Part shown: piece after piece, positions 5,996 through 28,208 of the stretch
How positions within the stretch are numbered: position 1 is the first letter of the stretch
Layout of the letters: each line of letters begins with the position of its first letter
Source: Kiritimatiellia bacterium
Lineage (GTDB): Bacteria; Verrucomicrobiota; Kiritimatiellia; RFP12; UBA1067
Direction of reading: 5' to 3'
Assembly: GCA_045535455.1 (NCBI GenBank)
Contig: JAZSLQ010000253.1
Location: 906 to 64,905, forward strand
Length of the DNA: 64,000 nt
Program-made: the position numbers and the translations under genes
Notes under the pieces: model-generated
The model's input: the letters and a program-made list of their open reading frames with translations, nothing else
Databases searched by the model: none
What the model was told of the DNA's origin: nothing

Positions 5996-6066
5996 AGTTT
6001 AAAGTTTAAAGTTGAAAGTTGAAAGTTTGAAGAGCAAAGTTTAAAGCAGAAGTTGAAAGGGGAAAG
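5994..6066. repeat. Tandem heptamer array AAAGTTK (about 10 units, degenerating 3') filling the argJ/tolB-like intergenic region
   Basis: aaagttt aaagttt aaagttg aaagttg aaagtttg aagagc aaagttt aaagcag aagttg aaagggg aaagac, then ATG at 6069. Confidence 0.9.
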
Positions 6067-6068
6067 AC

Positions 6069-7238: not shown

Positions 7239-7254
7239 GAGTTAGGGGTCAGTA

Positions 7255-7545
7255 ATGAAAATTGATGTTGCGTATGTGGCGGAGCTTGCGCGGCTCGAGC
7301 TCACCGACGGGGAAAAGTCGGTGTTCCAGCCTCAGCTCGAGAACATCGTCAAGTACGTCGAGAAGATTTCGGAGGTCGACGTCGAGGGTGTGGAGCCGAT
7401 GATGCACGGGCGTACGCTCGTCAACGCGTTCCGCGAAGACGTGGTGCGTCCCTCGCTTGCGGTCGAAACCGCGCTTGCCAACGCGCCAAAGCGCGTGGGC
7501 GACGAATTCCTCCTACCCAAGATCGTCGAAGGAGCGGAGAGCTGA
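7255..7545 (+). CDS. gatC: Asp-tRNA(Asn)/Glu-tRNA(Gln) amidotransferase subunit C
   Basis: 96 aa with a GatC-like sequence (MKIDVAYVAELARLELTDGEK...), immediately upstream of gatA. Confidence 0.9.
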   Translation: MKIDVAYVAELARLELTDGEKSVFQPQLENIVKYVEKISEVDVEGVEPMMHGRTLVNAFREDVVRPSLAVETALANAPKRVGDEFLLPKIVEGAES

Positions 7546-7546
7546 C

Positions 7547-8962
7547 ATGGAACTCTACGAACTTGGAATCAAGGCGGCGCAGGACGGAATCGCGAAGGGC
7601 GAGTTCTCGTCGATCGAGCTGACTCAGGCGATTATCGACCGCTACCACGCGAAGAACGCCGAGATCGGCGCGTACCTCACGTTCGACGAGGAACAGGCGC
7701 TTGCGCTTGCGCGCGAGAACCCGAAGGCGGTGCCGATCGCGGTAAAGGATTTGATCAACGTCGCGGGCCAGCCCTGCACATGCGCGTCCAAGATATTGAA
7801 AGGGTATGTATCTCCCTACGACGCGACTGTTATCAAGAACATGAGGGCGCATGGGTTCATCCCCGCGGGGCGCGTCAACATGGACGAGTTCGCAATGGGC
7901 TCTTCGACCGAGAACTCTGGTCTTGGCGTGACGCGCAACCCCTACGACCTTGGGCGCGTTCCAGGCGGCAGCTCCGGTGGCAGCGCGGCGGCGGTCGGCG
8001 GTAATCTTTGCATCGCGGCGCTTGGCACCGATACGGGCGGCTCCATTCGCCAGCCGGCGAGCTTCTGCAATTGCGTTGGCGTGAAGCCAAGCTACGGGCG
8101 CGTGAGCCGCTATGGCGTCACGGCGTTCGCGAGTTCGCTCGACCAGGTGGGCCCGATGACGAAGTCCGTCGAGGACGCTGCGATACTCCTTGGGGCGCTC
8201 GCAGGCCACGACGAGATGGACGGCACGACGCCTAAAGACCCTGTTCCTGACTACGCATCTGCGCTTGAGGGCGCGTCGATGAAGGGCGTCCGGCTCGGCG
8301 TCGCGAAGGAGTATTTCGACGTCAAGGGGCTCGATCCCGAAGTGAAGCGCATTACCGAAGAGGCGATTTCGATGTGCGAAAAGGCGGGCGCGGAGCTCGT
8401 CGAGGTGTCGCTCCCGCACACCGAGTACGCGATGGCGGTTTACTACATCATCGCGCCGGCCGAGGCGAGCGCGAACCTTGCGCGGTTCGACGGCGTGCGC
8501 TATGGGCACCGCTCCGCCGAGGCGAAGGACGTCTTTTCCCTCTATACGAAGTCGCGCGCCGAGGGCTTCGGGCCCGAGGTAAAGCGCCGCATAATCATGG
8601 GGACTTACGTTCTCTCGAGCGGCTACTACGATGCGTACTACGGGCGCGCCCAGAAGGTCAGGACGCTCATAACGCGCGACTTCACCGAGGCGTTCGGGAA
8701 GTGCGACGCGCTTCTCTCGCCCTGCGCCCCGACGCCGGCGTTCAAGTTCAACGAACTTCAAGACCCGCTTACGATGTACCTCAACGACCTCTTCACGATC
8801 CCGTCGGCGCTCGCAGGCGTCTGCGCCTCGTCGGTCCCTGCGGGCTTCTCGCGCGACACGAAGATGCCGGTCGGCGTCCAGTTCATCTGCGGCGCGTTCG
8901 AGGAGGCGAAGCTCCTGAAAATTTCAAAAGCATTTGAAGAACTGCGGGGAAGTTTGGTATAA
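7547..8962 (+). CDS. gatA: Asp-tRNA(Asn)/Glu-tRNA(Gln) amidotransferase subunit A
   Basis: Start moved to [12 protein letters not shown] (ATG 7547, 1 nt after the gatC stop). Amidase signature [11 protein letters not shown] and [12 protein letters not shown]. Confidence 0.93.
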
Positions 8963-8963
8963 T
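8934..8963 (+). promoter_or_regulatory. Putative promoter TTGAAG-N18-TATAAT (TGG-extended) inside the 3' end of gatA, 7 nt before the cyclophilin ATG
   Basis: TTGAAG 8934-8939, TGG 8955-8957, TATAAT 8958-8963, ATG 8971, no SD. Leaderless configuration. Confidence 0.5.
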
Positions 8964-8970
8964 CTCGGCC

Positions 8971-9465
8971 ATGAAAGCTACCATCGAGACTTCAAAGGGC
9001 ACGATAACCCTCGAACTTGACGGAGAGAAGGCCCCGGCGACTGTGGCGAATTTCGCGCAATACGCGAAAAGCGGTTTCTACGACGGCACCATTTTCCACC
9101 GCGTCATCGACGGGTTCATGATCCAGGGCGGCGGTTTCACCCGCGACATGAACCAGAAGGAGACGCGCGAGCCGATCATGATCGAGTCGATGAACGGGCT
9201 TTCAAATGTGCGCGGCACGATTGCCATGGCCCGCACGATGAACCCGAACTCCGCGACGAGCCAGTTCTTCATCAACGTCGTGGACAACGGCTTCCTCGAC
9301 TTCACGGCGCCCACGGTGCAGGGGTACGGATACGCCGTGTTCGGCCGCGTAACCGACGGTCTCGACGTGGTCGACGCCATCGCGAAGTCGCGCACGAGGT
9401 CGGTAGGCCCCTACGAGAATGTGCCCGAGGAAGCCGTCGTGATACGCAAGGTTGTCGTAGATTGA
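8971..9465 (+). CDS. ppiB: Peptidyl-prolyl cis-trans isomerase, cyclophilin type
   Basis: 164 aa. Cyclophilin motifs [15 protein letters not shown] and [10 protein letters not shown]. Confidence 0.9.
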
Positions 9466-9468
9466 CGG

Positions 9469-9497
9469 TTGCCAAGTCGGCTGGGAAAGTTTATAAT
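9469..9497 (+). promoter_or_regulatory. Putative promoter TTGCCA-N17-TATAAT
   Basis: TTGCCA 9469-9474 and TATAAT 9492-9497, followed by SD AGGAG (9520-9524) and ATG 9531. Confidence 0.4.
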
Positions 9498-9530
9498 AAC
9501 CACAATACCACCAATATCCAGGAGTGACAA

Positions 9531-10142
9531 ATGAAGAAACTTATCGCAATAGCAGCGCTCGCCATTTTCGCGCTTCCCTTGTGTGCTGCGACCGCGGCGT
9601 CAGACATGGTGACGGCCGATGACGTCGCCGACGACCTCTTGGTCGACGAGAACAACGGGCTCGAAGTCAAGGTTGACGCGCCGCGCAAGAACGTCGCGCT
9701 GTGGCCGGCCTTCATCGCTATCTGGGACTTCCCCGAGACCCCAGATCTCGTTGGGCTCCGCATCACCGTCCCCTACTCCACAAAGCAGGAGAACGTGACG
9801 GGCATCGACGTCGGCTTCTGGGGCAGGTCCGAGTATTTCGAGGGCATCCAGGTTAACGTGCTCAGGAACGACGTCAGGGATTCCTGCGCTGGCATCCAGG
9901 TCGGCCTGTACAACTCGGTCGCCCGCGGGGACCTCTTCGGCATCCAGGTCGGCCTCTGGAACGAATCCCTGAGCCATCGCGGCTTCCAGGTTGGCTTGAT
10001 CAACGTCTCCGGCGACTCGCAGGGCTTCCAGATCGGCCTCATCAACCGCAGCGAGACGATGTACGGTTTCCAGGTCGGAGCCATCAACATAATCCGTGAC
10101 GCGGAATTCCAGTTCCTGCCGTTTCTCAACATCGGCTTCTGA
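9531..10142 (+). CDS. Secreted repeat protein with six G-[IF]-Q-[VI]-G-x-x-N repeats
   Basis: Signal peptide MKKLIAIAALAIFALPLCAATAA. Repeats GIQVNVLRN, GIQVGLYNS, GIQVGLWNE, GFQVGLINV, GFQIGLINR and GFQVGAINI at about 20-aa spacing. Confidence 0.7.
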   Translation: MKKLIAIAALAIFALPLCAATAASDMVTADDVADDLLVDENNGLEVKVDAPRKNVALWPAFIAIWDFPETPDLVGLRITVPYSTKQENVTGIDVGFWGRSEYFEGIQVNVLRNDVRDSCAGIQVGLYNSVARGDLFGIQVGLWNESLSHRGFQVGLINVSGDSQGFQIGLINRSETMYGFQVGAINIIRDAEFQFLPFLNIGF

Positions 10143-10148
10143 TAAAAA

Positions 10149-11342
10149 ATGAAGATACAGCCATTTGCGGCCGTCAGGCCGAACAAGGAGGACGCGGCGC
10201 TTGTCGCGTCCGTTCCTTATGATGTAGTCGACACAGCCGAGGCGAAGGCCCTCGCCGCAGGCAACCCCAAGAGCTTCCTGCACGTCTCGCGCCCCGAGAT
10301 CGACCTCCCCGAGGGGACTGACTGTTCGTCGCCCGAGGCGTATGCGCAGGCGCGTAAGGCGCTCGACCAGCTTATCGCCGACGGCGTCCTCGTGCGCGAC
10401 GCCGAGCCGAAGTTCTACGCCTACCGGCAGACGATGGGCTCGCACTCGCAGACGGGCATCGTCGCGACGTTCGACACCCAGGACTACCTCGCCGGCGTCC
10501 TGAAGCAGCACGAGAAGACGCGCAAGGACAAGGAAGACGACCGCACTCGCCACATCGAGACGCTTTCTGCGCACACGGGGCCTGCGTTCCTCACCTACCG
10601 CGACGACAAGGCGATAGACCTCATCGTGGCCGATGCTTGCCGCCGCGAGCCCCTGTACGACTTCGTCGCGCCCGACGGCATCGGGCACACGGTCTGGGAG
10701 ATCGCGTCTGGCTCTTCATGCGCGGCCGACGAGCTCCAGGAGCTCTTCGCGCGCATTCCCGTCGCCTACATTGCCGACGGCCACCACCGCAGCGCTGCGG
10801 CGTCGCGCTATGCAAAGGAACACGGCTTCGAGGGCGAGAGCCGCTGGTTCCTCGCAGTCGCCTTCCCAGCGAGCCAGCTCAAGATACTTGCCTACAACCG
10901 CCTCGTCGCCGACCTGAACGGGCTCTCGCCGTATGAATTCATGTCGCGCATCAGCGAGAACTTCACCATCGGCCAGAAGGGCGCTCGCAACTGCCGCATG
11001 TACTTCAACGGCCGTTGGACCGATCTCTCGTGGGACATCCCGTCCGGCGCGGATGTCGTCTCGTCTCTCGACGTCAGCTATCTCCAGGACAAGCTGCTCG
11101 CCCCCGTCCTCGGGATTGGCGATCCGCGCACCGACCAGAGGATTTCCTTCATGGGCGGGATCCGCGGTGACGCGGCGCTTGCTGCAAAGGTCGACTCGGG
11201 CGAAGCCGCCGTCGCGTTTGCGATGGAGCCAGTCACGGTCGAGGAGATGATGGCGATTGCCGACGCGGGGGCGATAATGCCGCCCAAGTCAACCTGGTTC
11301 GAGCCGAAGCTCCGCTCGGGGCTCTTTGTGCACACCGTCTGA
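10149..11342 (+). CDS. DUF1015 family protein
   Basis: 397 aa. N-terminal IQPFAAVRP and the ADGHHRSAAA motif are characteristic of DUF1015. Confidence 0.8.
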   Translation: MKIQPFAAVRPNKEDAALVASVPYDVVDTAEAKALAAGNPKSFLHVSRPEIDLPEGTDCSSPEAYAQARKALDQLIADGVLVRDAEPKFYAYRQTMGSHSQTGIVATFDTQDYLAGVLKQHEKTRKDKEDDRTRHIETLSAHTGPAFLTYRDDKAIDLIVADACRREPLYDFVAPDGIGHTVWEIASGSSCAADELQELFARIPVAYIADGHHRSAAASRYAKEHGFEGESRWFLAVAFPASQLKILAYNRLVADLNGLSPYEFMSRISENFTIGQKGARNCRMYFNGRWTDLSWDIPSGADVVSSLDVSYLQDKLLAPVLGIGDPRTDQRISFMGGIRGDAALAAKVDSGEAAVAFAMEPVTVEEMMAIADAGAIMPPKSTWFEPKLRSGLFVHTV

Positions 11343-11345
11343 CGT

Positions 11346-11858
11346 ATGGACGTGCGTGGCTATTTCCGGCGACTCCGCGAGAAGATGATTCGCGATCCTC
11401 TTCCGCCGGAGGACATAGCCGCCGGATGGGCCCTTGGCGTTTTCGTCGGGTGCGCGATTCCGTTTGGGCTGCAGCTCATCATCTCGATTCCGCTTGCAAT
11501 GATGATGCGCGTCAGCAAAATTGGCGCGACGCTCGGCACCTTCGTCACCAACCCGGTCAGCATATTCTTCATCTATCCCGCGCAGACGTTCGTCGTGAAC
11601 AAGCTTCTGTTTGACGGCTCGCTTACGTATTCTCGGCTTGCGGAGACAGAGTGGACGTGGGCGGCAGTACGGCGGCTCGGCGCGGAGGCGATGGCGTCGT
11701 TCTTTCTCGGGGGCTTTCTCCTCGCGATAGTGATGACGCCGATAGCGTACTTCACGGTCAAGCGTCTTGTCGTTCGCGCCCGCGCGTTTCGCGCAAAACT
11801 TGCCGCACGCAGGGCGGAGAAAGCGGCTGCGGCTCCTTCGGGGGCTGTCGCGCAATGA
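11346..11858 (+). CDS. DUF2062-like membrane protein
   Basis: 170 aa with several TM segments. GWALGVFVGCAIPFGLQLIISIPLA pattern. Confidence 0.6.
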   Translation: MDVRGYFRRLREKMIRDPLPPEDIAAGWALGVFVGCAIPFGLQLIISIPLAMMMRVSKIGATLGTFVTNPVSIFFIYPAQTFVVNKLLFDGSLTYSRLAETEWTWAAVRRLGAEAMASFFLGGFLLAIVMTPIAYFTVKRLVVRARAFRAKLAARRAEKAAAAPSGAVAQ

Positions 11859-12259: not shown

Positions 12260-12264
12260 ATTTA

Positions 12265-12273
12265 TGGTATAAT
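12265..12273 (+). promoter_or_regulatory. Extended -10 TGGTATAAT upstream of tRNA-Pro
   Basis: TTATGGTATAAT at 12262-12273. The tRNA 5' end is 20 nt downstream. Confidence 0.5.
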
Positions 12274-12292
12274 ATAGCCCGTCTTCCCTACA

Positions 12293-12369
<77 letters not shown>

Positions 12370-12421
12370 TTCCCGTAGCAATATTAGGTTTTTCGTTTGC
12401 TACCATCGGAAACTATATATA

Positions 12422-12430
12422 TGGTATAAT
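12422..12430 (+). promoter_or_regulatory. Extended -10 TGGTATAAT at the start of the accessory region
   Basis: ATATGGTATAAT at 12419-12430, about 85 nt upstream of SD GGGAGAGG and ATG 12517. Confidence 0.4.
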
Positions 12431-12516
12431 GTCACCACATTGGCATTATGAATCTTTTTGCCCAGCTACTTGGAAACGGAAAGAATTACTTTGAATGAAG
12501 ACGGATAAGGGAGAGG

Positions 12517-13374
12517 ATGATGCGCAAGAAACTCAAGTTGCTCATGTTTTTCTTAGCCGGGTTTGCCGTTAGCGCCGGCGTGACATTTGTTACTCGGCCC
12601 GAGGCGATTGTCTCCCGTTGTCCGGAATGGGCCTTACCTTACATCAACCCCGTAAATTGGTCAATCCGGCATTTTGTTAAGGCGTTGGTGGCGGGGGATG
12701 CCGCGGCGCTGGCTGAGCATGTGATACTGCCGTTCGAGCGCCAATATCCCATTCCGAAGATTAATACAATGGATGAGTTCGTGGCGGCGATACCGTCGCT
12801 TTTGGGCAAAGATGCCGTGAAGCGACTCTCCGACTCAAGCGCATTTCGCGATTGGAGCCAGATTGGGGCAGGTTACGGGCACGATTCTGTTGGGATCTGG
12901 GTGACTGACGATATGCCAGTGCAATTAGAGGCCATAACCGAACTGACGCCGGCGGAAGCAGCACTTTGGGAAGAGTGTGCCAAGCGCGAAGTCGCCTCGT
13001 TGCATTCTTCGCTTCGGGACGGTGTGGCGCGTCCGATCCTGAGTTTCGTGACGGAAGACACGGCCTTTCGCGGGAGAATCGACTTGCTTGGCGAGAAGCT
13101 GGATGTCCGAGCAAGCGAGGCAGGGTTCAAATATCGTCTGGCCATATACAAGGCAGGGAATGCCATAACGAACGCCCCAGACAAGATTGTGATGTGCAAA
13201 TACGGGCATGACGGTTCTCCCGGCTATGACAGCTACACTAGCGAAGACGAGCAGTATCAAGTGACCGTGAACTATTGCGGACCTCTTGATTTCGCCGAGA
13301 TGGATTTCTACCGCCCTGGCATCGCCGAAGACGATGACAAGGCCCATCGCGCAAAATCCTGCGAATGGAAATAG
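12517..13374 (+). CDS. Hypothetical membrane-anchored/secreted protein
   Basis: 285-aa ORF with N-terminal hydrophobic helix LKLLMFFLAGFAVSAGVTFV and an SD upstream. No recognisable domain. Confidence 0.6.
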   Translation: MMRKKLKLLMFFLAGFAVSAGVTFVTRPEAIVSRCPEWALPYINPVNWSIRHFVKALVAGDAAALAEHVILPFERQYPIPKINTMDEFVAAIPSLLGKDAVKRLSDSSAFRDWSQIGAGYGHDSVGIWVTDDMPVQLEAITELTPAEAALWEECAKREVASLHSSLRDGVARPILSFVTEDTAFRGRIDLLGEKLDVRASEAGFKYRLAIYKAGNAITNAPDKIVMCKYGHDGSPGYDSYTSEDEQYQVTVNYCGPLDFAEMDFYRPGIAEDDDKAHRAKSCEWK

Positions 13375-13690: not shown

Positions 13691-16006
13691 ATGGAACAAA
13701 GGAATAAAGATGCAGCAAATCAAATGAACTATGAGCAGAAGAATGTCTTCGAAATAATACGTCGCTCGATAAGAAGATTACTTGAATGGAAGTTCATGTA
13801 TGGGGTAAGCTTTAGCTCTGCTTTTTTGGGTATGTGTCTTGATTCTGTGGCGAATGTTGTTAAAAATGCTTATTGGTTTCAACGTGTTGCGTATGTTGTT
13901 GTCTTTTGTATAGTAGTAAGCATTTTGTTGTCAACGTTGGCATATGGGCGTAGAAGCATTAGTGACCGTTTGAAAAATGCGTTGCAGGAATTTTCTCGAT
14001 TTGGGCTATGCATGGCATGTGTTGTGGCTGGAGGGTTGGCGGCTTTGTGTGTTTCTAGTGTGCGTTCTCACATTGACAAAGAAACGACCGACTATGTGTA
14101 TTGTGAGAATGTAATAGACAACTATGGGATGTTTAAAGTGGCTGGCAAACAAAGCAATACGCCAATTTCTGGGTGGTATCGGTTTACATACAAAGGAACG
14201 CATTCCATAAATGAGAAGCATATACACAGGTATGATGCTAATAAAAGACTGTATGGATTTCTACCGTGGAGATACAGAACACTGCATAGTGTAGAACTTA
14301 TCGATGGTGCGAAGCATACGCTTCCTCCAGCGTTGTGCGCAGATATACCACCGGCGCGTATCATTTATAAATACAGACAAGATGGGCTTGACGTTGAAAT
14401 GTGGGAGTTTTCAATGCTGGATGCGGTCCTTGACAACGGTTTCAATCTTGAATTTGTACAGAAGTGGTACGATTCTGGGGATAATATTAATGTGGAATGC
14501 AGGATGGTTGATGGGAAAAATAGACGAGTATTCGCCCCGAGTTCCAGTACGGCGTCTTGGAATGAGATGGTGCCACTTGACGTTGTGTTGCCGCATAGTA
14601 AGTTTTCGTCATACAAGGTTGTTCGTGACGGATTGGGGCGGATGTCATCAGTATTAACCAGTGTCCCTGATCATGATGGTATCAAAAGGGTTGACTTTGA
14701 GTATGCCGACAATGATGAATATGAGCTTCCATACTTGAGGCGTGAGATGTACAACACAATAAATGCCGATGGAATCCAGCAGATTGAAAAAGAGTATAAT
14801 GGGACGTCGATTGACCTTAGGTATACAGGAGATTCACGGTTTGACATAAGGATAGATGCCATTTCTAGAAATGAGAATGCGTGGACAAACATGGTGGTTT
14901 CGCACTATAGCAATGGGATTGGAAATACAAATTATGTCATAAGGTACATGAGAAAAATCGATGACTTGGGGCGTGTTGTAAATGATGAGATATTTAGGCG
15001 AACGGAAAGCGGGGAAGTGCGTCTGGCGGAAAACAGATATTGTTGGACGGTCATGAACGAGGTTAATGTCGTGTCGGACATTGAATACAGGGATGGCGAG
15101 GGGAATTTGATTGAAAGACCGTTTTTACCACTTTCTGATGTGTTTGGCGCTTCAAGTACTAATATGCCGATGGCGGCAAGAATCAGATATGTTCAAGGCA
15201 AAGGACATGTTGATGTTATGCTGTTTGACGCGACAGGGACGAATGTTACGGATAGAATACGATTTTATGGAGAGAACAATGGCCGTGAACGCATTGAGTG
15301 GCGGAGCCATGATGGCGTGGGAGTCGTGCCTATTGGTATATGGAAGGACAGTGTAGCTGTTGCCTGGGAATCTATATCTTATCAAGATAAAGTTGGCGTC
15401 GCAAAGCCAAATAATGCCGGGCGTCTACAATGCATGGAGGTTCGATGGCTTAGTGCAAGTGGAGACCTTGCACAATGTCCAGCTGGCTGGGCCGTCCGTA
15501 GAATATACACGAATCCAGACTGCAATGATGATGTTGAAGACATTGGATTCTCTGAACAGGTGAGACGCATCGAATATCTTGGAACAGATGGAAAACTATG
15601 CCGTACGTTGGGGCTTGCGCCAATTCAGGAATTTGCCCACGATAAGAGCGGGCGAGTTGTCGAGATACGTAATCAAGACGCTGACGGCATGCCACTGGCA
15701 ACCATCGTCACGCAAAATGGGGGCATGCCGATTTCAGCCTGCATCAAGATAATATATGACAACTTTGGAAGGGTGACGAGGCGGCTTTACCTTGATGAAA
15801 AAGGTGCTCCTTGTGAACAATCGGAACTGGTTTTTGCTTATAATGGAACGTCTCGGATCGCATCCAAGGTTGAGATGGTGGGAAGAAGCGGCTCAAGAGT
15901 AGATGTTACAAAGAACCTATTCTTATTTCGCGAGGATGTAAGCCCACAGTTTAAGTTGCCAGTAGGGACGGGGCCAATAGGGCAAGAAGTCGAAGAACCA
16001 GATTGA
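13691..16006 (+). CDS. Membrane protein with YD/RHS-like repeats
   Basis: 771 aa with SD AAAGGAG upstream. 3-4 N-terminal TM helices. YD-repeat-like motifs YDNFGRVTRRLYLDEKG, HDKSGRVVEIRNQDADG, YLGTDGKLCRT, IDDLGRVVNDE. Low GC (about 40-45%). Confidence 0.6.
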   Translation: MEQRNKDAANQMNYEQKNVFEIIRRSIRRLLEWKFMYGVSFSSAFLGMCLDSVANVVKNAYWFQRVAYVVVFCIVVSILLSTLAYGRRSISDRLKNALQEFSRFGLCMACVVAGGLAALCVSSVRSHIDKETTDYVYCENVIDNYGMFKVAGKQSNTPISGWYRFTYKGTHSINEKHIHRYDANKRLYGFLPWRYRTLHSVELIDGAKHTLPPALCADIPPARIIYKYRQDGLDVEMWEFSMLDAVLDNGFNLEFVQKWYDSGDNINVECRMVDGKNRRVFAPSSSTASWNEMVPLDVVLPHSKFSSYKVVRDGLGRMSSVLTSVPDHDGIKRVDFEYADNDEYELPYLRREMYNTINADGIQQIEKEYNGTSIDLRYTGDSRFDIRIDAISRNENAWTNMVVSHYSNGIGNTNYVIRYMRKIDDLGRVVNDEIFRRTESGEVRLAENRYCWTVMNEVNVVSDIEYRDGEGNLIERPFLPLSDVFGASSTNMPMAARIRYVQGKGHVDVMLFDATGTNVTDRIRFYGENNGRERIEWRSHDGVGVVPIGIWKDSVAVAWESISYQDKVGVAKPNNAGRLQCMEVRWLSASGDLAQCPAGWAVRRIYTNPDCNDDVEDIGFSEQVRRIEYLGTDGKLCRTLGLAPIQEFAHDKSGRVVEIRNQDADGMPLATIVTQNGGMPISACIKIIYDNFGRVTRRLYLDEKGAPCEQSELVFAYNGTSRIASKVEMVGRSGSRVDVTKNLFLFREDVSPQFKLPVGTGPIGQEVEEPD

Positions 16007-16108
16007 AAGATGGACCGGAGGCGCTCACGGAGGTGACGAAAATGGTTGCGGCAGACGATTATTCCTCGCCATCCTCGTCGGTAACTTCATGACATACATG
16101 CAAAGGAA

Positions 16109-18649
16109 ATGATAAAAAAAGGCCATGAAATATCGGGTGTTCCGCTGTGTCTGCGAGGACATTCTGTGAAATCTGAATCTGGTGTCAGAACTGGCAAGAA
16201 AACTGGTGTGAAAGCCGTGTCTAGGCCTCGGTTCTGGGATATCGTGGAGAGTATCCCTGACGAGGTGACGGCGTTTTTCCGGAGACTGGAGGATGCGCGG
16301 AATAGGTTGGCGCTCGGGCCGGAGACCGAGGTGCTCAATGAGGTTGCACATGAAGAATATATTGCATGTGTGGGTAAAGGCGGGAAGTCGGTCGGACGGC
16401 CAACCGCGTTGATGCGGTGGTATGAGGTCTTTCGCGACATCTACATCCTGAGTCGGGCGAAGAAGTCGAACGACGGCGAGATAAGGAAGAACCCCAACGG
16501 ATTCACGACGTTCGCGCGCACTTTCGAACCACTTGCGTTTCTGTCGGATTTCTGGTTCGCGGCGAAGAGGAATGTGTCGTCGAGAGACATCCGCAGCCGT
16601 GGTCATGGGCTGCGGCTATCGTTCGAGAGGTTCCTCTACGAACGCGCTGGGGGTGGCGTCTGGGGGGCAATGGACTGGGAAATGAACCGCTTTCTCCAGT
16701 TGCGCATCTACGAGGCGCTCAAGTCTGATGAACAGGGCGCTCTCCGCCGAATTGCCGCGCTAGCGCTTGCCGCCCGAGCGGTAGCCGCAGGCGAGCTTGG
16801 GCTGTACGTCGAGGAACGCGACGACGTCACGCTCCCGCTTTCGGGGTTCTCCAATGTCCATAACGACTATCGAAAGCGCAATCCGCTTCTGAAGTACTAC
16901 CACTACGACCGCTTTACGCAGCTCTCATTCGCCCGTGAACACGAATTCGCGATGGATCCGAACGTGACTGGTACGCACATGCGCTTCGAGCGCCAGTGGG
17001 TCGCGATGGCGGTTCTCTCTGACGTTATACTCAAGGAGTCGGATGCACATTCGACAAATGCCGCCGCGACGCGCGTTATGCTGGAGTCCGTGGCCCAGTG
17101 CATGGTGCGGATCAAGAACAAGCTTCGCAAGTTGGGGACGCACAAGAAGATACTCAAGGCGGCAAATGTGATTTACGACTGGGTCGTTTCGCGCCCTGAT
17201 GAATTCGCACAAGTCGAGGAAGAGAAGTTGCTAAAGGAGATTGGCGTCTGCGAACGCCCTGTTGAAAGCTCCTTCTACCTTGACAAGTGCGGCTTCGCCA
17301 ATGCTTCTGCATTTTGGGCTGCGGTTATGCCGATTTTCCGTGAACTTGTCTATGCTTGCGATGTCAACCGCGACTGTGTCGTTGCAAAGTACACGGAACA
17401 GCAGCGCCGCGAAGCCTTCAATGACGCGAACTCGACTGTGCAGTTCGTGCGTGGCGTGCTCGACAGGGGCAACATCTCCGATCTGCCCGGATCGGTCGGC
17501 AAGACAGGTGTGCGCGATGCGCTGATGACCCTTATGTTGGAGGGGGCTGCGTCACTCCAGTACGCGGTGATGGACAAGGTGCTTACGGGGAACAAAAAGG
17601 CCTCGATGTCTCGAGTTTCATTCTTGAACGAGGAACGCTGTGCTGTGCGCGTCTTGCCGGAACGGATGCCTTTCTCCGGCGAAGAGACGCCGCAGTTCCG
17701 CGACTGGATAGTGCGATATCTTGCAGGCCTCTCAGCAAAATGCGCTGAAGAAAGGAACTCTGGACTTCAGGTGGAACGCGACGAATGGCTGCAGAACTGG
17801 CGGAAGAAGAACGGTGCTCTTGCGGCGCCGAAGCGAACCCCATTCCCGTCCGTAAGCCCGATTTCGTACAATGGCATTGATTTCAAGGAAGTCTGCGACA
17901 AGGCAGACGTGCTCTGGAATCTCTACTTTACGAGGGACGATATCTGCCTCGGGCGCTGGATCATGTCTATGGCCAAGGCGCTTGAAATCCTGCACGACAT
18001 GGACGCCAATCGCTATGTCAAGCATGCCTTCGCCGCCAATCTCACCTGGACGTGTACGCCAGAGATGCGCAGCGGATTGATTGCCCGCCTTGAGGCCGAA
18101 AAGGCGGAGCTCGTAGAGCGTGAACTCTGGCCGGACAACCTGGACGAACTCAAGGCGAAGCTCAAATCTGAGCCCCCATGCACGATAGACAACCAGCTTT
18201 CCGGCGAGTCGCGGATTCTTGTCATGATTGCCGTGTTCGCGCGCCTCATGGTGCATACTGCCGTGGCGCACGCCGCGCTCTGGGAGAGGAAAGCAGACCT
18301 CTTCGCATTCTTCACGCACATCCTCATCGCCTCTAATCACGATTTTGACTTCCCGTTCCCCTGGCATCTGGATATTGCGTCCGCGAGCTATCTTCGCACC
18401 GGGCGCACCCATGCGCGACAGACGAACGTTGTCGACGACATCGTCGGCGGGGCATTTTTCGACGAGTCTGAAAGGGCGCTTTTCATCGCCTTCGTCGCCC
18501 ACTATCTCGCTGGGCGGGCGGATGCGAGCGGTATTCTCGAAGCGATCCTCTCGAGCCCCCATATGACGGCTTATTTCGCGGATCACGATACGGATTTGGC
18601 CAAGCGCCGCGTCAAATTCCTTAAAACCCACTTCGACGGAATTCCTTGA
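16109..18649 (+). CDS. Large hypothetical protein (846 aa), no recognisable domain
   Basis: Long uninterrupted ORF with protein-like, mainly helical-looking composition. Start assigned to the first ATG after AAAGGA. No catalytic motif identified. Confidence 0.6.
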   Translation: MIKKGHEISGVPLCLRGHSVKSESGVRTGKKTGVKAVSRPRFWDIVESIPDEVTAFFRRLEDARNRLALGPETEVLNEVAHEEYIACVGKGGKSVGRPTALMRWYEVFRDIYILSRAKKSNDGEIRKNPNGFTTFARTFEPLAFLSDFWFAAKRNVSSRDIRSRGHGLRLSFERFLYERAGGGVWGAMDWEMNRFLQLRIYEALKSDEQGALRRIAALALAARAVAAGELGLYVEERDDVTLPLSGFSNVHNDYRKRNPLLKYYHYDRFTQLSFAREHEFAMDPNVTGTHMRFERQWVAMAVLSDVILKESDAHSTNAAATRVMLESVAQCMVRIKNKLRKLGTHKKILKAANVIYDWVVSRPDEFAQVEEEKLLKEIGVCERPVESSFYLDKCGFANASAFWAAVMPIFRELVYACDVNRDCVVAKYTEQQRREAFNDANSTVQFVRGVLDRGNISDLPGSVGKTGVRDALMTLMLEGAASLQYAVMDKVLTGNKKASMSRVSFLNEERCAVRVLPERMPFSGEETPQFRDWIVRYLAGLSAKCAEERNSGLQVERDEWLQNWRKKNGALAAPKRTPFPSVSPISYNGIDFKEVCDKADVLWNLYFTRDDICLGRWIMSMAKALEILHDMDANRYVKHAFAANLTWTCTPEMRSGLIARLEAEKAELVERELWPDNLDELKAKLKSEPPCTIDNQLSGESRILVMIAVFARLMVHTAVAHAALWERKADLFAFFTHILIASNHDFDFPFPWHLDIASASYLRTGRTHARQTNVVDDIVGGAFFDESERALFIAFVAHYLAGRADASGILEAILSSPHMTAYFADHDTDLAKRRVKFLKTHFDGIP

Positions 18650-18783: not shown

Positions 18784-19230
18784 CTAAGGGATTTCGCCGT
18801 CTCCCGGCGACGAAATAAAGTCAAGGTCGAGCTGGATCGCCTCGAGTCCGGCTGAGGCGTCACTTTCCTCCTGCCCGAACAGCTCTTTGGGGAGTCTGTC
18901 GATGTGATAGACCTTTACTGCGTGGTGCTTGATTGACGAGGTTGTGCATAGGAGAAGCGTCGCGGAGGTCCTTTTACAGATGTTGGCGCAGTTGTCCGGG
19001 TCGTCGTTGGAAATCTTGTACCACAGACCCCAGTCATAGCGGAGATAGAGGTGCATTTCGTCTATCCAGAATATCGCGGCATCCACTGGATACGGATTGT
19101 CGTCCGTTCCCACCTGCATCATGACGCCGTATTCGTTCCGCGCCGAGCATTGCGTCGACAGTTCGCATGACGACAGGAAGGCCCTGCCCTCTGACCAGTC
19201 CTCGAATTCTGGTTCCCACATTTTATTCAT
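18784..19230 (-). CDS. Hypothetical 148-aa protein translationally coupled to the upstream AAA+/M41 protease gene
   Basis: Start moved to MNKMWEPEFEDW. ATG 19230-19228 overlaps the protease stop (TAA 19225-19223) by 8 nt. No known motif. Confidence 0.55.
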   Translation of the reverse strand: MNKMWEPEFEDWSEGRAFLSSCELSTQCSARNEYGVMMQVGTDDNPYPVDAAIFWIDEMHLYLRYDWGLWYKISNDDPDNCANICKRTSATLLLCTTSSIKHHAVKVYHIDRLPKELFGQEESDASAGLEAIQLDLDFISSPGDGEIP

Positions 19231-22180
19231 TGCCGTGACTTCCTTTCCCTTTGACGACGGTGCCTCTCCTGCGGTGAAGTGCAGCTTCAACGTCTTCCTG
19301 GAAGAGAGTCCCGCACTGGACGAGGTCGTTGGCGACGATCTTCAGCGCGGTCTTGTGCTTTGTGAGAAGAGAGGACACGATCTTCATCCGGTCTGCGAGG
19401 ATTGCGTTTACCTTGGGGCGTATGCGCTCCCAGTAACGGCCTCCTTCGGCGAAGTTTGGCGTCACGGCAAGTTCGTCGCCTTCGCAGAAGCCGCCGCAGA
19501 CGATCCTCCTCGCGTAGCCGGTCGCGGCCACGAAGTCGCTTTTGCTCCCCTCTGAGACCGTTCCGAGAATTCGTTCTGCGGCGTTCCCCGCAAGAGCGAC
19601 GTCAATCTTCTCCTTGAGTTTCTCCATGGATTTTCCGATGCAACCGTCGTCCAGGTGCTCGAGGAATCCGAGGGTGTCTGCAAAGCCGTTTATCGTTACC
19701 TGAAACCAGTTTTGCTTGCGGAGGGTGGCGACGAGCGCGTGGCCCGCCTCATGGGTTGCCACATGCAGCTTTTCCTCGTCCGTCAGCTGCGGGCGCTGCG
19801 TTTCCTCGCCTGCAAATTCCGTGTTCCTGGCCTGCGCGAACATGCGGCGCGTTGGCGTTTCGTCGCCCGCGATGTCGAACATCTCGCGCAGGACGCTCAG
19901 GATGTTTGCCGGCGCCCATCCGTCCGTGGCCAGCGCGATAAGGGTCTTTAGCTTTTCTGGCATAGTGCGCTTTGCCTTTCGGCAGAAGATGTCGATGAGC
20001 TTCAGGCGGTCGTCGGGGCTGCGCAGGACATCAACCTTGATTCGGGTATGGAGGCGTCCTGGGCGCGTCAGGGCGGGGTCGAGCATGTCGGGCCGATTGG
20101 TCGCGCCGATTACGAGTACGTTGCTGTCCTCAAACCCGTCCAGCAGAGTTAGAAGCGTGTTGATGACAGGGGCCTGCGAGGCATTTGAATGTTCCCGCGA
20201 GCCGATGGCGTCGCATTCATCTATGAAGATTATGGACTGCGTTCTTTCCGCCGTTGCGAAAAGGTTCTGTATCCACCTGACGGCACGGTTGTCGTTGCGG
20301 GATGTCGTGAACTTTGCCGCATTGACGCAGATGAAGCTGCGGTTGAGCGTGTGGGCGATTGCCTTGGCAAAGGCGGTCTTGCCTGTGCCTGGGGGGCCAT
20401 ACAGGAGAATGTGGTCGGGCTTGAAACCCTCGGCTTTGTTGTTGTGCGTGCTTGCCAGGAACTTCCGTACGCGCGCCCATGCGGCTTCCAGCCCTACGAG
20501 GTCTTCTGGCCGTGTGTTTGGCGGACAGACGCTGAACCAGCCGGCATCTTCAATGGCCGGCATGACAGTGTGCCTGAGGTTTGTGATGCGCAATGTAGTT
20601 GCGCCGTCGGCGAAGGTCACTTTGATGTCGTATTCGAGCTGCAGTGCTTGCCGAAGTCTGGCCCACGTGCGCTTCTCCAGCGTCGAGAGCGCGCCATTGG
20701 ATTTCAGCGCGGGCGGGATGTCGAGCTCGGGAAGGTCGTCAACGACAATGGAGATTCGCGCGCCGTCGAGGTCTTTTGGGTCTGACGTGTCCAGCAGTTC
20801 CCTTTCAAGGCGCGTGACGAGGGTGTCCTCTATCACCTGTGCAATGCCGTGCGCCGAATCAAGATTCTGGAGCGTCTCGATGAAGAAGGCGATGAGCTTC
20901 TCTCGGTCGGCCTCGATTTCCGCCTTGAACAGTGACTTCACTTGCGCGAGCGTATTGTCGATGGCGTCGCCGATGATTGCAGACATCGAACGGACGTCAT
21001 GGCGCTTGAAGAGGATGGGGACATCTGCCTTCTTGAGGATTTCGGCGAGGATGCCGGCCTTCTCGGGCGTTTCCGTCTCAAGCGCGGCGGTTATGCCCTC
21101 GACGAGCTTTTCCCGTGGAATCGTCCCGCCATTGCGCGAGCAGAGATGGGCGAACTTCCCAGATTCGATGTAGGTTGTTCCCTGATTGGTTGTCAGGATT
21201 ACGATGTTCCTTGCAAACGAGACCTCCTTTGCTGTAAATTCATCAACAAGCTTTCCCGTGGTTAGCATGTTCGCTATTGGCACGAGGGCTCCTGGATGGG
21301 CCTTGTCTATGTTTTCGAGGATGATGACGCCATGCGGGAACTTAGCGGCGAGCCTGGTGACTTGTCCTTCCTTCCCGCCGTCTTTCCAGCAGGGGTCGCG
21401 TCCGCATATCTCAGTTATGAGCTGTTCTACAGAGAAGCGGCTCATATCGACGATGTCTGGCTTTCCGCCGCCGAACGCATGCGCCCATGCGTCGCGGAAG
21501 GCCGTGGCCATCATGGACTTGCCCGTTCCCGAGCCGCCAATAAAGGCCGCAGAGATGGGGCGGAAGCCTCGTGCCGACGGCGGTTCGATCATCGCTGTCG
21601 CGACATGGGCAATAAGCGCCTCGATGGCCTTGTCCTGCCCGCGGCAAGTTTTGGAGAGATCGGTCTTTATCTGCTTGAGCGTCCTCATCCTGTCTGCGCG
21701 TTCCTTTGCGTAGGACTTCTGAAACTCCGTGTCGGCGAGTTCTTGTGCCCTGGCCATTACGGCGTCAACGTACGAAGCGTTGTCCGACACTATGGCATTT
21801 AGCTGGAGAAGTTCGAGTACGGGGCCGCGGGGTTTGATCAGCATTGCCGCCGCGAGGTGCGGGAGCCCCAGCTCGATTACGGGTCCGAGCGCGTCTGAGA
21901 CGTCGTCCATTCTCCCGCCGTGCAGCGAGAGGATGCGGTTGACTTGAGAAGAGAGAAAGATCTCGCCGTCTTGCTCTCTCGGTTCGAATAAAAGGCTCTC
22001 CGGGCGTATAAGCCGCTTGACGCCGAGTATCTCGCGAAAGATGTCCGCATCAGTGTCGAGAAATGCCGCAAGAAGGTGCTTGAGGCGGAGGACGTTGTCG
22101 TCAGTCCCCGCTGCATAGCGAGTCGCGAGAGCGAGGATTTTTGAGTAGGCCTCTGAATACAATGGTTGCATTTCGCACAT
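19223..22180 (-). CDS. Soluble chimeric AAA+ protease: Clp-N-like domain + ClpA/B D2-like AAA module + FtsH-type AAA module + M41-like zinc protease
   Basis: 985 aa with no TM segment. D2-like module: GQDKAIEALIAHV..., Walker A GGSGTGKS, atypical Walker B VIILENIDKAH. FtsH-like module: LLYGPPGTGKT, IIFIDECDAIG, SRH VIGATNRPDMLDPALTRPGRL. Protease: HEAGHALVA plus GSKSDFVAATGYARRIV. Strong SD AAAGGAG 7 nt before the ATG. Confidence 0.8.
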   Translation of the reverse strand: MCEMQPLYSEAYSKILALATRYAAGTDDNVLRLKHLLAAFLDTDADIFREILGVKRLIRPESLLFEPREQDGEIFLSSQVNRILSLHGGRMDDVSDALGPVIELGLPHLAAAMLIKPRGPVLELLQLNAIVSDNASYVDAVMARAQELADTEFQKSYAKERADRMRTLKQIKTDLSKTCRGQDKAIEALIAHVATAMIEPPSARGFRPISAAFIGGSGTGKSMMATAFRDAWAHAFGGGKPDIVDMSRFSVEQLITEICGRDPCWKDGGKEGQVTRLAAKFPHGVIILENIDKAHPGALVPIANMLTTGKLVDEFTAKEVSFARNIVILTTNQGTTYIESGKFAHLCSRNGGTIPREKLVEGITAALETETPEKAGILAEILKKADVPILFKRHDVRSMSAIIGDAIDNTLAQVKSLFKAEIEADREKLIAFFIETLQNLDSAHGIAQVIEDTLVTRLERELLDTSDPKDLDGARISIVVDDLPELDIPPALKSNGALSTLEKRTWARLRQALQLEYDIKVTFADGATTLRITNLRHTVMPAIEDAGWFSVCPPNTRPEDLVGLEAAWARVRKFLASTHNNKAEGFKPDHILLYGPPGTGKTAFAKAIAHTLNRSFICVNAAKFTTSRNDNRAVRWIQNLFATAERTQSIIFIDECDAIGSREHSNASQAPVINTLLTLLDGFEDSNVLVIGATNRPDMLDPALTRPGRLHTRIKVDVLRSPDDRLKLIDIFCRKAKRTMPEKLKTLIALATDGWAPANILSVLREMFDIAGDETPTRRMFAQARNTEFAGEETQRPQLTDEEKLHVATHEAGHALVATLRKQNWFQVTINGFADTLGFLEHLDDGCIGKSMEKLKEKIDVALAGNAAERILGTVSEGSKSDFVAATGYARRIVCGGFCEGDELAVTPNFAEGGRYWERIRPKVNAILADRMKIVSSLLTKHKTALKIVANDLVQCGTLFQEDVEAALHRRRGTVVKGKGSHGNE

Positions 22181-22388
22181 GATTTTTCTCCTTTCTGTCT
22201 TTTATTCTTTCTCGGGTGCTTTGTCGTCTATTGATTCTCTATTGCAGATTCCTTTTCGATGACGAGGCGCCAAAAGCGTCGGTTTCGCCTTGCGCAAGCT
22301 ACCTCGTCAGGGTCGGATGTTATTTTCAGCTTTATGTAGCGAGAGTCGGCTCGTGACATCGCATTGCTGACAAAGCCGTAGTCGAGGT

Positions 22389-22715
22389 TTAGTTTTTTGG
22401 AGATGGCTTGCGTAACGCGGGCGGCTGTCCAGAGATTTGTGCACCCAAGGTGTCCTTGCGGATCGAGGGAGATTCTCCATCGCTCGCCAGTAACTGATGA
22501 TTCTGGTGTGGTGCTGCCGCCAGTCGGTGGCTTGAAGACAAGTGTGAATTCGTCTTCATAAAGGTCGCGGCAAGTATCGCCCAGCCCGCCGTCAATGCGA
22601 TTGCGTGGCTCGTCGTCAGTGCGGGCGCTGCAGCATGGACTGTTGCCATTCCGACAAGGCAGCACATCCTGGCCAGCGCGATCATAGCAGCCATTAGCTT
22701 TGTGTTGGTGTTCAT
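22389..22715 (-). CDS. Hypothetical small membrane protein (possibly the 5' part of a frameshifted gene)
   Basis: Strong SD GAAAGGAG 5 nt before ATG 22715. MNTNTKLMAAMIALARMCCLVGMATV... is hydrophobic, but the C-terminal half looks non-protein-like. The overlapping frame 22228.. looks globular. Confidence 0.3.
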   Translation of the reverse strand: MNTNTKLMAAMIALARMCCLVGMATVHAAAPALTTSHAIALTAGWAILAATFMKTNSHLSSSHRLAAAPHQNHQLLASDGESPSIRKDTLGAQISGQPPALRKPSPKN

Positions 22716-22858
22716 AGACTCTCCTTTCTGTGCGTTTCGTGTTATATTTTCCCATGAGTTTTTCACAAAGGCAATACGGATAACCTCTACACGGTCTTGC
22801 ACGTTTTAAAGGACCAATTTTTTGCCGTGCGTGCATGGAAGTGCGAGTGCGAGACGCA

Positions 22859-22887
22859 TTGTTGTCGGGCTTGTTATATTGTATAAT
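22859..22887 (+). promoter_or_regulatory. Putative promoter TTGTTG-N17-TATAAT
   Basis: TTGTTG 22859-22864 and TATAAT 22882-22887, upstream of the mini-lipoprotein ORF. Confidence 0.3.
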
Positions 22888-22932
22888 AGCGGCGTTCAAG
22901 GAACCGAGGTGTCGAAATGAAAGGAGTGTATC

Positions 22933-23058
22933 ATGGTGCATGAAACTAGAATTGGCAGAGCGACAATAGTCCGAAACCTTGTTCTGGCGGTCGGCTTTGG
23001 CGGTATGGCTGTCGCAGGATGCGGATTCAACGCCGCGTGGGAGGAAAGACAATGTTAA
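22933..23058 (+). CDS. Mini-lipoprotein (41 aa; predicted mature lipopeptide of 12 aa)
   Basis: Absent from the ORF track (<60 aa). SD AAAGGAG at 22919-22925, ATG 22933. MVHETRIGRATIVRNLVLAVGFGGMAVAGC has a lipobox VAGC. Mature part is CGFNAAWEERQC. The stop overlaps the next ATG (ATGTTAA). Confidence 0.45.
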   Translation: MVHETRIGRATIVRNLVLAVGFGGMAVAGCGFNAAWEERQC

Positions 23059-28154: not shown

Positions 28155-28184
28155 TTGAATCAAACATCCGGGCTATGGTATAAT
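28155..28184 (+). promoter_or_regulatory. Putative promoter TTGAAT-N18-TATAAT (TGG-extended)
   Basis: TTGAAT 28155-28160, TGG 28176-28178, TATAAT 28179-28184, followed by SD GGAGG 28198-28202. Confidence 0.5.
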
Positions 28185-28208
28185 ATACTCGTAGATTGGA
28201 GGGTGCTT

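Follow-up and report, generated by a model that had tools for sequence, protein, structure and literature searches.

The window analysed here is a stretch of 64,000 nucleotides of DNA from a bacterium of the class Kiritimatiellia (assembly GCA_045535455.1, contig JAZSLQ010000253.1, positions 906 to 64,905). On its reverse strand it encodes a soluble zinc metalloprotease of 985 amino acids, whose single chain joins a Clp-type AAA module to one of the FtsH type and to an M41 peptidase domain. The protease gene is translationally coupled to the gene of a small private partner protein, and both are usually linked to a helical protein of about 820 amino acids and a protein of about 70 amino acids, forming a compact four-gene module of about 6.1 kb. 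Because this module is rare, apparently mobile and polymorphic, we favour a role in conflict or stress over one in housekeeping proteostasis, and propose, with confidence that is about evenly balanced, that it acts as a dedicated switch based on regulated proteolysis, within an accessory system of conflict (defence) or stress signalling. Narrowing this proposal to anti-phage defence would be tentative at best, and we consider that specific role distinctly less probable than the broader one. The protease and its parts are located as follows.

19223..22180, reverse strand: soluble two-ring AAA+ zinc metalloprotease of 985 amino acids (P0001), from the open reading frame (ORF), domain searches and relatives
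21701..22180, reverse strand: N-terminal domain of the protease (residues 1-160), divergent, Clp_N-like, from the family profile
20783..21697, reverse strand: D1 of the protease (residues 162-466), a Clp D2-type AAA module with an invariant Trp265 pore loop, from Pfam AAA_2 and NCBIfam
19871..20470, reverse strand: D2 of the protease (residues 571-770), an FtsH/Cdc48-type AAA module, from Pfam AAA
19286..19786, reverse strand: M41 zinc peptidase domain (residues 799-965), from Pfam Peptidase_M41

Domain architecture and conserved residues of the protease

An earlier note on this DNA, made from its letters alone, had described the protein as a chimera of Clp-N, Clp-D2, FtsH-type AAA and M41 modules. 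The reading frame is present, and so are all the motifs quoted for it (GGSGTGKS at residue 215, PCWKDG at 263, VIILENIDKAH at 285, GPPGTGKT at 595, SRNDN at 627, DECDAIG at 654 and HEAGHA at 810). Three of the four modules were recovered by domain searches. Pfam identified AAA_2 at residues 209-343 (E = 1.7e-20), AAA at 591-717 (E = 1.1e-38) and Peptidase_M41 at 799-965 (E = 4.3e-16), and residues 162-466 align with the D2 halves of the NCBIfam models of ClpV, ClpA and ClpB (E = 2.7e-23 to 1.4e-14). The best full-span match among solved structures is FtsH (2dhr; residues 559-965, E = 8e-39). The fourth module is less certain. A Clp-N-like N-terminus is plausible but weakly supported, because the N-terminus of the window protease has no Pfam match by itself and the matches of the family profile are weak: a profile of residues 1-165 from 22 members matches only Clp/Hsp104 N-domains among PDB sequences (best E = 3.7e-4), and Pfam Clp_N is matched by 6 of the 22 members (best E = 2.6e-4), the window copy not among them. 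No transmembrane segment is predicted in the protease; the highest Kyte-Doolittle mean over 19 residues is 1.61 and lies inside the N-domain, with no hydrophobic segment elsewhere, in agreement with the proposed lack of a membrane anchor. About 85 full-length clusters of this protease, with 28-98% identity, were found among 5.8 billion proteins searched; most of them are derived from metagenomes and nearly all are unnamed.

Residue conservation was assessed in an alignment of 81 full-length relatives. In D1, the Walker A residues G215, G218, G220 and K221 are invariant, whereas the Walker-B pair, which is Asp-Glu in Clp D2 modules, consists of Glu or Asp followed by Asn (position 290) in 79 of the 81 sequences. 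The pore-loop segment of D1 reads G-R-D-x-x-W-[KR]-D-G-G-x-E-G. W265, which in the alignment takes the place of the pore tyrosine of the ClpB, ClpC and ClpE D2 modules, is invariant, and position 266 is always Lys or Arg. The change from PGYVGY to PCWKDG pointed out in the earlier note is thus real, but the aromatic residue of the pore loop is nevertheless kept, as an invariant Trp at the place of the ClpB D2 tyrosine. In D2, the GPPGTGKT motif, D654/E655, N695, R706 and R709 are invariant. The pore-1 position, however, which is M-F-V-G in FtsH, is occupied by S-R-N-D-N and holds no conserved aromatic residue among the 81 relatives; the pore-loop residue R632 is present in 60 of them. The peptidase residues H810, E811 and H814 are invariant, as are G878, D882, A886 and A890 in the FtsH-like context G-x-x-x-D-x-x-x-A-x-x-x-A; by analogy with the FtsH motif, D882 would provide the third ligand of the zinc ion.

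Walker-B Glu-to-Gln mutants of AAA+ enzymes are trap mutants, and by analogy D1 is predicted to bind ATP without hydrolysing it. Given the Asn in place of the Walker-B Glu in D1 and the polar pore-1 loop in D2, the hydrolysing ring would therefore lack the usual gripping residue. Textbook AAA+ proteases have aromatic pore loops and ATP hydrolysis in one ring; in the family described here, the gripping residue (D1) and ATP hydrolysis (D2) are predicted to be split between two rings.

This arrangement sets the protease apart from both of its parent families. With FtsH, Yme1 and AFG3L2 it has in common a classical AAA module (Walker A and B, sensor-1 and two arginines of the second region of homology) fused to an M41 domain with HEXXH and a downstream Asp. 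It appears to work like a protease of the FtsH family, but it departs from FtsH in three defining features: the membrane anchor (two transmembrane helices and a periplasmic domain in FtsH), the aromatic pore-1 loop, and the equivalog score, which is 179.6 bits for residues 571-963 compared to the NCBIfam cut-off of 600. In addition, it possesses the Clp_N-like domain, the Clp-D2-type ring and a dedicated coupled partner, all of which FtsH lacks. Class I Clp/Hsp100 proteins (ClpA, ClpB, ClpC, ClpV) resemble it in that D1 aligns to their D2 modules, including the pore-loop and Walker-B regions; the N-domain profile matches their N-domains as well, but weakly. They contain, however, two Clp-type modules with a catalytic Walker-B Asp-Glu in D2, and their ClpP peptidase is separate; here a single D2-like module has Asn for Glu and Trp for the pore Tyr, the second ring is of the FtsH type, and the peptidase is fused in cis. 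Because it has only a single D2-type module, without the catalytic Glu, the protease falls outside the definition of the Clp class I. The earlier statement that no described system contains this fusion was supported by our literature search, in which no publication describing the Clp-FtsH-M41 fusion was found.

The partner protein and the four-gene module

The remaining three genes of the module lie on the 3' side of the protease gene.

18784..19230, reverse strand: partner of 148 amino acids, short allele, with a beta-rich N-domain (about residues 1-120) and an acidic tail, from the 8-nt overlap and homology
16109..18649, forward strand: mostly helical protein of 846 amino acids (P0003), 76% identical to the convergent gene of locus L001
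18649..18855, forward strand: ORF of 68 amino acids, with a TGATG stop/start junction with the 846-amino-acid gene, as read from the sequence

The ATG of the partner at 19230 lies inside ATGAATAA, so that the partner gene overlaps the end of the protease gene by 8 nt, as noted before, and a purine-rich stretch, AAGGGAAAGGAAG, is located 8-20 nt upstream of this start. The protease gene is translationally coupled to that of the partner, and their start/stop overlap recurs in several loci. Gene neighbourhoods were compared by applying our own hidden Markov models to all ORFs of 14 distinct assembly loci and of 20 metagenome-contig loci found with a partner-specific pattern. The partner N-domain comprises about 120-125 residues and shares about 25-70% identity with genes directly 3' of the protease in other loci. 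In 12 of the 14 assembly loci it immediately follows the protease; a thirteenth (L016) has only the partner C-domain in common, and L007 contains only a 65-amino-acid ORF where the partner is expected. Among the 20 partner-anchored metagenome loci, the protease is directly upstream in all 17 that contain enough upstream sequence. When 1.84 billion representative proteins were searched exhaustively, only 63 partner relatives were obtained (representatives at 50% clustering), with the domain N-terminal in essentially all of them. The protease-partner pairing, present in almost every locus examined, is regarded as obligate.

Most partners have a length of about 330 amino acids. The AlphaFold model of the 334-amino-acid partner of L001 (mean predicted local distance difference test score, pLDDT, 82.6) shows two domains, a beta-rich one at the N-terminus (residues 15-120) and an alpha/beta one at the C-terminus (160-330), which are connected by a disordered acidic linker (121-155). 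In 99 partners, the net charge of the 35 residues following the N-domain averages -6 and is below zero in 90% of the proteins; for the whole proteins, the corresponding value is -2.7 per 35 residues. The conserved parts of the partner are the N-domain and this acidic, predicted-disordered segment. Engagement of the acidic tail by the basic pore residues of the protease (K/R266 and R632) would fit these features, although this is inference only. A Foldseek comparison of the confident AlphaFold model with the PDB gave no match with E < 0.1, the partner profile retrieved nothing from the PDB sequences at E up to 1, and Pfam, NCBIfam, PADLOC and PHROGs provided nothing informative. No similarity to ClpS or MecA was found, which are N-domain adaptors on ClpA and ClpC, respectively. 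The arrangement of an unfoldase gene with a small dedicated partner gene recalls that of clpS and clpA.

The earlier note had called the protease and partner an orphan two-gene module and the 846-amino-acid protein an orphan. Both descriptions had to be abandoned: the protease has at least 81 full-length relatives, the 846-amino-acid protein has 71 and belongs to the same conserved neighbourhood, and so does the 68-amino-acid ORF. The 846-amino-acid gene adjoins the protease gene in most loci. It is convergent with it in the window, as stated before, and in the closer relatives, and divergent and upstream in lineages with 40% identity (L008, L015, L017). None of its relatives has a Pfam domain. 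The AlphaFold model (pLDDT 82.6) is mostly helical and multi-domain with residues 1-37 below 50, and the true start of the protein is probably near codon 28-40. As for the partner, no match with E < 0.1 was obtained when the confident model was compared by Foldseek to the PDB, here together with BFVD, and the sequence profile found nothing among PDB sequences at E up to 1. The 846-amino-acid protein, the small ORF and many neighbouring genes likewise gave nothing informative in Pfam, NCBIfam, PADLOC and PHROGs. The N-terminal approximately 45 residues of the 68-amino-acid ORF are conserved in L001, L005 and L006 (38-62% identity), and the family recurs 3' of the 846-amino-acid gene in many loci.

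One locus, L101, contains a second, divergent protease gene (973 amino acids, same domain set) with a partner-like gene (292 amino acids) at 14096-17892 on the reverse strand; this pair lies on the same strand, directly upstream of the 846-amino-acid homologue, so that two paralogous protease/partner pairs flank one 846-amino-acid gene. In the window, the 846-amino-acid gene is directly preceded by a gene of 771 amino acids with low GC content (43-48%) and two N-terminal hydrophobic segments (13691-16006, forward strand), whose position is taken in L005 by a kinase-like gene with a TCAD9 domain. The 771-amino-acid gene is in turn preceded by a 285-amino-acid gene (12517-13374, forward strand), of which a 45%-identical relative is found near the module in L005.

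If the module is indeed a regulated-proteolysis switch, the protease would form a stacked hexamer with two tiers and be self-compartmentalised. D1 would be permanently ATP-bound and serve as the ring for assembly and for gripping the substrate, whereas D2 would act as the motor whose power stroke feeds the M41 chamber, where the threaded substrate would be degraded. The partner would dock via its N-domain, most likely onto the Clp_N-like domain in a manner comparable to ClpS and MecA on ClpA and ClpC. It could be a dedicated adaptor, or alternatively a pro-substrate whose acidic tail enters the pore lined by the basic residues. Controlled degradation would then switch the state of the linked proteins, and the 846- and 68-amino-acid proteins (in long alleles also the partner C-domain and a YbaB-like protein) would be the regulated or sensing components. 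A more specific version appears unlikely to us: since the gripping ring (Trp265, Lys/Arg266) would not hydrolyse ATP and the hydrolysing ring has no aromatic paddle, translocation could be non-canonical and tuned to the acidic tail of the partner, in a hitherto undescribed type of protease-gated conflict or signalling system whose sensor/effector set, the 846- and 68-amino-acid proteins, is controlled by partner degradation.

Distribution, mobility and allelic forms

The DNA of the window is matched at 100% by JAFQYM010000009.1 from a Kiritimatiellae metagenome-assembled genome of goat duodenum. Within sampled genomes the module is rare: the 846-amino-acid protein was found in 2 of 301 genomes of the class, and the partner in 5 of 401 genomes (4 of 184 genera) of the phylum. 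Even in the genus of the window the partner is present in only two of four sampled genomes, one of them the window's own. In a genome of another family (G049), the protease, the 846-amino-acid protein and the partner are 78, 76 and 71% identical to those of the window, but three core proteins only 52-68%; in a genome of the same genus (G556), these values are 51, 44 and 28% for the module and 64-84% for the core proteins. Horizontal exchange would produce such discordant identities, for which three core markers only were compared; so would the differential loss of paralogous lineages of old origin. The rarity of the module, its variation within the genus and its phylogenetic discordance with core genes indicate that it is a transferred accessory unit, which agrees with the view in the earlier note of an accessory region of mixed GC content.

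The variable region has a recognisable left edge.

12293..12369, forward strand: tRNA-Pro, left edge of the variable region (ARAGORN); synteny with G531 ends just after the preceding DUF2062 gene

The genome G531, from the same genus and without the module, is collinear with the window from 4775 to 11858, up to the DUF2062 gene before this tRNA (55-84% amino acid identity), but no counterpart of any window ORF between 12.5 and 30 kb was found in the 17.8 kb read past its DUF2062 gene. A polysaccharide regulatory cassette is therefore also located in the variable region. A search for attachment (att) repeats revealed a single sequence common to the surroundings of the tRNA-Pro and the far side, a 14-nt word, TATGGTATAATATA, which occurs at 12263-12276 just before the tRNA, at 12420-12433 (157 nt later, 86% match) and at 28174-28187. 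As an att repeat this word is unconvincing; it is TATAAT-like, resembles a -10 element and is probably part of a promoter.

The window carries a reduced, short allele of the module: the C-domain of the partner is missing, as are the YbaB-like and SEDS-like genes found in other loci. Nucleotide comparison to L001 revealed that the window partner ends after the linker owing to a deletion of about 1.1 kb, in which the YbaB-like gene was lost together with the C-domain of the partner and about 25 codons at the end of the small ORF. As a result of this deletion the convergent partner and 68-amino-acid ORFs now overlap at their 3' ends by 72 nt. The YbaB-like gene (123-126 amino acids; weak YbaB/EbfC match with E = 5.8e-5, below the Pfam cut-off) was identified 3' of long partners in eight loci (L001 at 13978-14352, L013, L099-L102, L104 and L105); it always accompanies a long partner and is absent with short ones. 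In a tree of the protease C-terminal region the short alleles are intermingled with the long ones, and at least three changes between the two forms are required by well-supported branches, although some of the 'short' labels are unreliable because a contig end cuts the partner. The proteases of L101 (long) and L109 (short) have almost identical ends, but the sequences flanking the deletion differ in similarity, with 98% identity on one side and 84% on the opposite side. This difference suggests that long and short alleles are exchanged by recombination.

Upstream of the protease gene a second truncation is apparent.

22249..22650, reverse strand: stump (last approximately 134 codons) of a SEDS-like membrane protein gene, 73% identical to residues 440-569 of the 593-amino-acid protein of L102

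Full-length relatives of this protein are encoded directly upstream of the protease in L099, L101 and L102; they have about 590 amino acids, about ten hydrophobic segments and a C-terminal soluble domain, and match FtsW/RodA weakly (21-26 bits compared to a cut-off of 26.4). According to blastn, the rest of the window gene (about 1.4 kb) is deleted relative to L102. Most of the 274-amino-acid ORF at 22228-23052 (reverse strand) is thus probably not a gene, because only its 3' part matches the SEDS-like protein and the remainder of that gene is missing. A 41-codon ORF in the same region (22933-23037, forward strand) encodes a peptide with 69% identity to the first 35 residues of a 458-amino-acid transpeptidase-domain protein of L001, and over 130 nt the DNA here is a 96% match to L102. 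This ORF does not resemble an independent lipopeptide gene; it appears to be what is left, at the 5' end, of a neighbouring gene that was replaced.

After these deletions of about 1.1 kb and 1.4 kb, the module of the window no longer has the partner C-domain, the YbaB-like gene, a complete small ORF or more than a stump of the SEDS-like gene, and most partners are more than twice as long. It could thus be a decaying remnant without current function in this genome. We regard this as very unlikely. All four remaining ORFs are intact, protease relatives with 94-98% identity occur in other samples, near-identical DNA is found in many gut metagenomes, and the short arrangement recurs in at least nine further loci that hold a complete partner gene.

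The SEDS-like gene also suggests a different biology, in which the protease and partner would regulate a non-canonical cell-wall synthase by controlling the turnover of the SEDS-like protein, its PBP-dimer-like domain and a nearby transpeptidase. In addition to the three loci mentioned above, a SEDS-like gene is located 3' of the partner in L017, a PBP_dimer protein is encoded 3' of the partner in L011, and transpeptidase-domain genes are next door in five loci; the SEDS/PBP neighbours span three divergent lineages with different gene orders, and the window has kept the stump. On the other hand, SEDS-like genes occur in only about 5 of about 30 loci and are absent from other short- and long-allele loci with the four core genes intact, and the window has lost most of its copy. 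The FtsW/RodA scores are low, the protease is soluble, and the PBP neighbours may be explicable by synteny among close relatives. Taken together, a cell-wall function appears rather improbable.

Neighbouring genes and the conflict or stress hypothesis

The earlier note had likened the combination of an AAA+ ATPase, a protease and a small partner to stress or anti-phage systems. This idea is a hypothesis at present: PADLOC models matched the protease only as generic AAA proteins (IetA and TRIP13 on D2, PDC-M37B on D1), and no system-level match was obtained. The IetAS anti-phage pair resembles the module in combining an ATPase with a protease, but the similarity of IetA to D2 (88 bits at residues 554-768 in PADLOC; 74.5 bits for the NCBIfam IteA model with a cut-off of 510) concerns the generic AAA core only. 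Moreover, IetS is a subtilase, whereas no S8 protease is encoded among the window neighbours and the M41 domain is fused in cis. A further comparison is offered by the FtsH-containing MoxR-vWA ternary conflict systems, which contain two FtsH-type AAA copies, the N-terminal one without a P-loop, together with MoxR and vWA partners (Kaur et al., 2020; PMC7159879). They share with the module an FtsH-type AAA protein with an impaired N-terminal AAA domain, and the TCAD9 domain, which is named from these systems, is found near the module in five relatives. However, the N-terminal module of the protease is of the Clp-D2 type with an intact P-loop, M41 is present, and there is no MoxR or vWA gene among the window ORFs.

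TCAD9 kinase-like proteins are encoded near the module in L001, L005, L006, L017 and L113; the literature found describes this domain solely as a kinase-like one of ternary systems and in association with CRISPR. A TIR protein is encoded just upstream of the 846-amino-acid homologue in L006, within its operon. The TCAD9 and TIR genes hint at a conflict role. Further neighbours of the conflict type are a Pkinase/PP2C/VWA trio in L008 and Sel1-repeat proteins in L008 and L010. The TCAD9 protein of L005 (16054-17727, reverse strand), directly upstream of the 846-amino-acid homologue, has weak matches to APH/EcKL kinase-like families and an N-terminal match to receiver domains that is below the Pfam cut-off (24.4 compared to 30.2 bits), which may hint at a phospho-signalling input.

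Several observations weigh against a conflict or stress-signalling switch. Firstly, the prediction that D1 does not hydrolyse ATP rests on the analogy to Walker-B mutants, and since the alignments to Clp D2 modules end near sensor-1, neither the Arg finger nor sensor-2 could be located in D1. Secondly, defence searches gave little: in PADLOC-DB v2 the partner, the 846-amino-acid protein and the flanking ORF have no match, and PADLOC detected no known defence system in the window, nor among those neighbouring genes of relatives that were tested, the sole neighbour match being one TIR protein. Thirdly, no module copy was found on viral contigs, where the best 80 of 248 matching stretches were examined and all proved to be generic FtsH-like sequences covering only residues of about 480-980. 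The same holds true for plasmids, which gave generic FtsH matches to at most 55% of the protease and none to the 846-amino-acid protein. Fourthly, the evidence of expression comprises only a small number of short contigs from gut RNA libraries that match the protease or the 846-amino-acid gene; DNA carry-over is possible, and these contigs are too weak as evidence of co-transcription. Furthermore, cell-envelope and chaperone neighbours recur (the SEDS-like protein, the transpeptidase of about 450 amino acids and a TerB-DnaJ protein) and indicate a different biology, and in L009 and L018 the protease-partner pair stands alone among ordinary metabolic genes. Finally, adaptor, substrate and effector roles cannot be distinguished, because neither the partner nor the 846-amino-acid protein has a recognisable fold or family.

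The chaperone neighbours lead to a further alternative, namely that the module provides some gut strains with an additional soluble FtsH/Clp machine for protein quality control under proteotoxic stress, for which the partner would be a ClpS-like adaptor. Transmissible heat-resistance loci follow a comparable logic, as they carry extra copies of ClpK/ClpG and FtsH. In line with such a function, the protease is a second M41 protease beside the canonical FtsH, which is encoded on another contig of the same genome; it combines a Clp_N-like domain with a Clp-type ring, the TerB-DnaJ (J-domain) gene is nearby in five loci, and no defence hallmark was found. No genes for small heat-shock proteins, ClpK/ClpG, DegP or thioredoxin were detected in any neighbourhood read, however, and the sole ring predicted to hydrolyse ATP lacks the aromatic pore loop normally required for general unfolding. 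The fast-evolving partner and the tight link to two fold-orphan proteins also suggest a specific client rather than bulk quality control. An accessory quality-control protease therefore seems unlikely, though less so than a regulator of cell-wall synthesis.

Independent of its cellular role, the protease defines a family of at least 81 sequence clusters in which hydrolysis and aromatic pore loops would reside in different rings, an FtsH-type protease operates off the membrane, and a private partner is retained. This family may thus serve as a natural experiment that shows how AAA+ machines generate and transmit the force for translocation. Since its linked proteins match nothing solved and it is rare, variable within the genus and apparently horizontally transferred, the module qualifies as a candidate accessory system, so far uncharacterised, for defence or stress in Kiritimatiellia from ruminant and other guts and in more distant lineages, and its small size of four genes should make it testable in a laboratory host.

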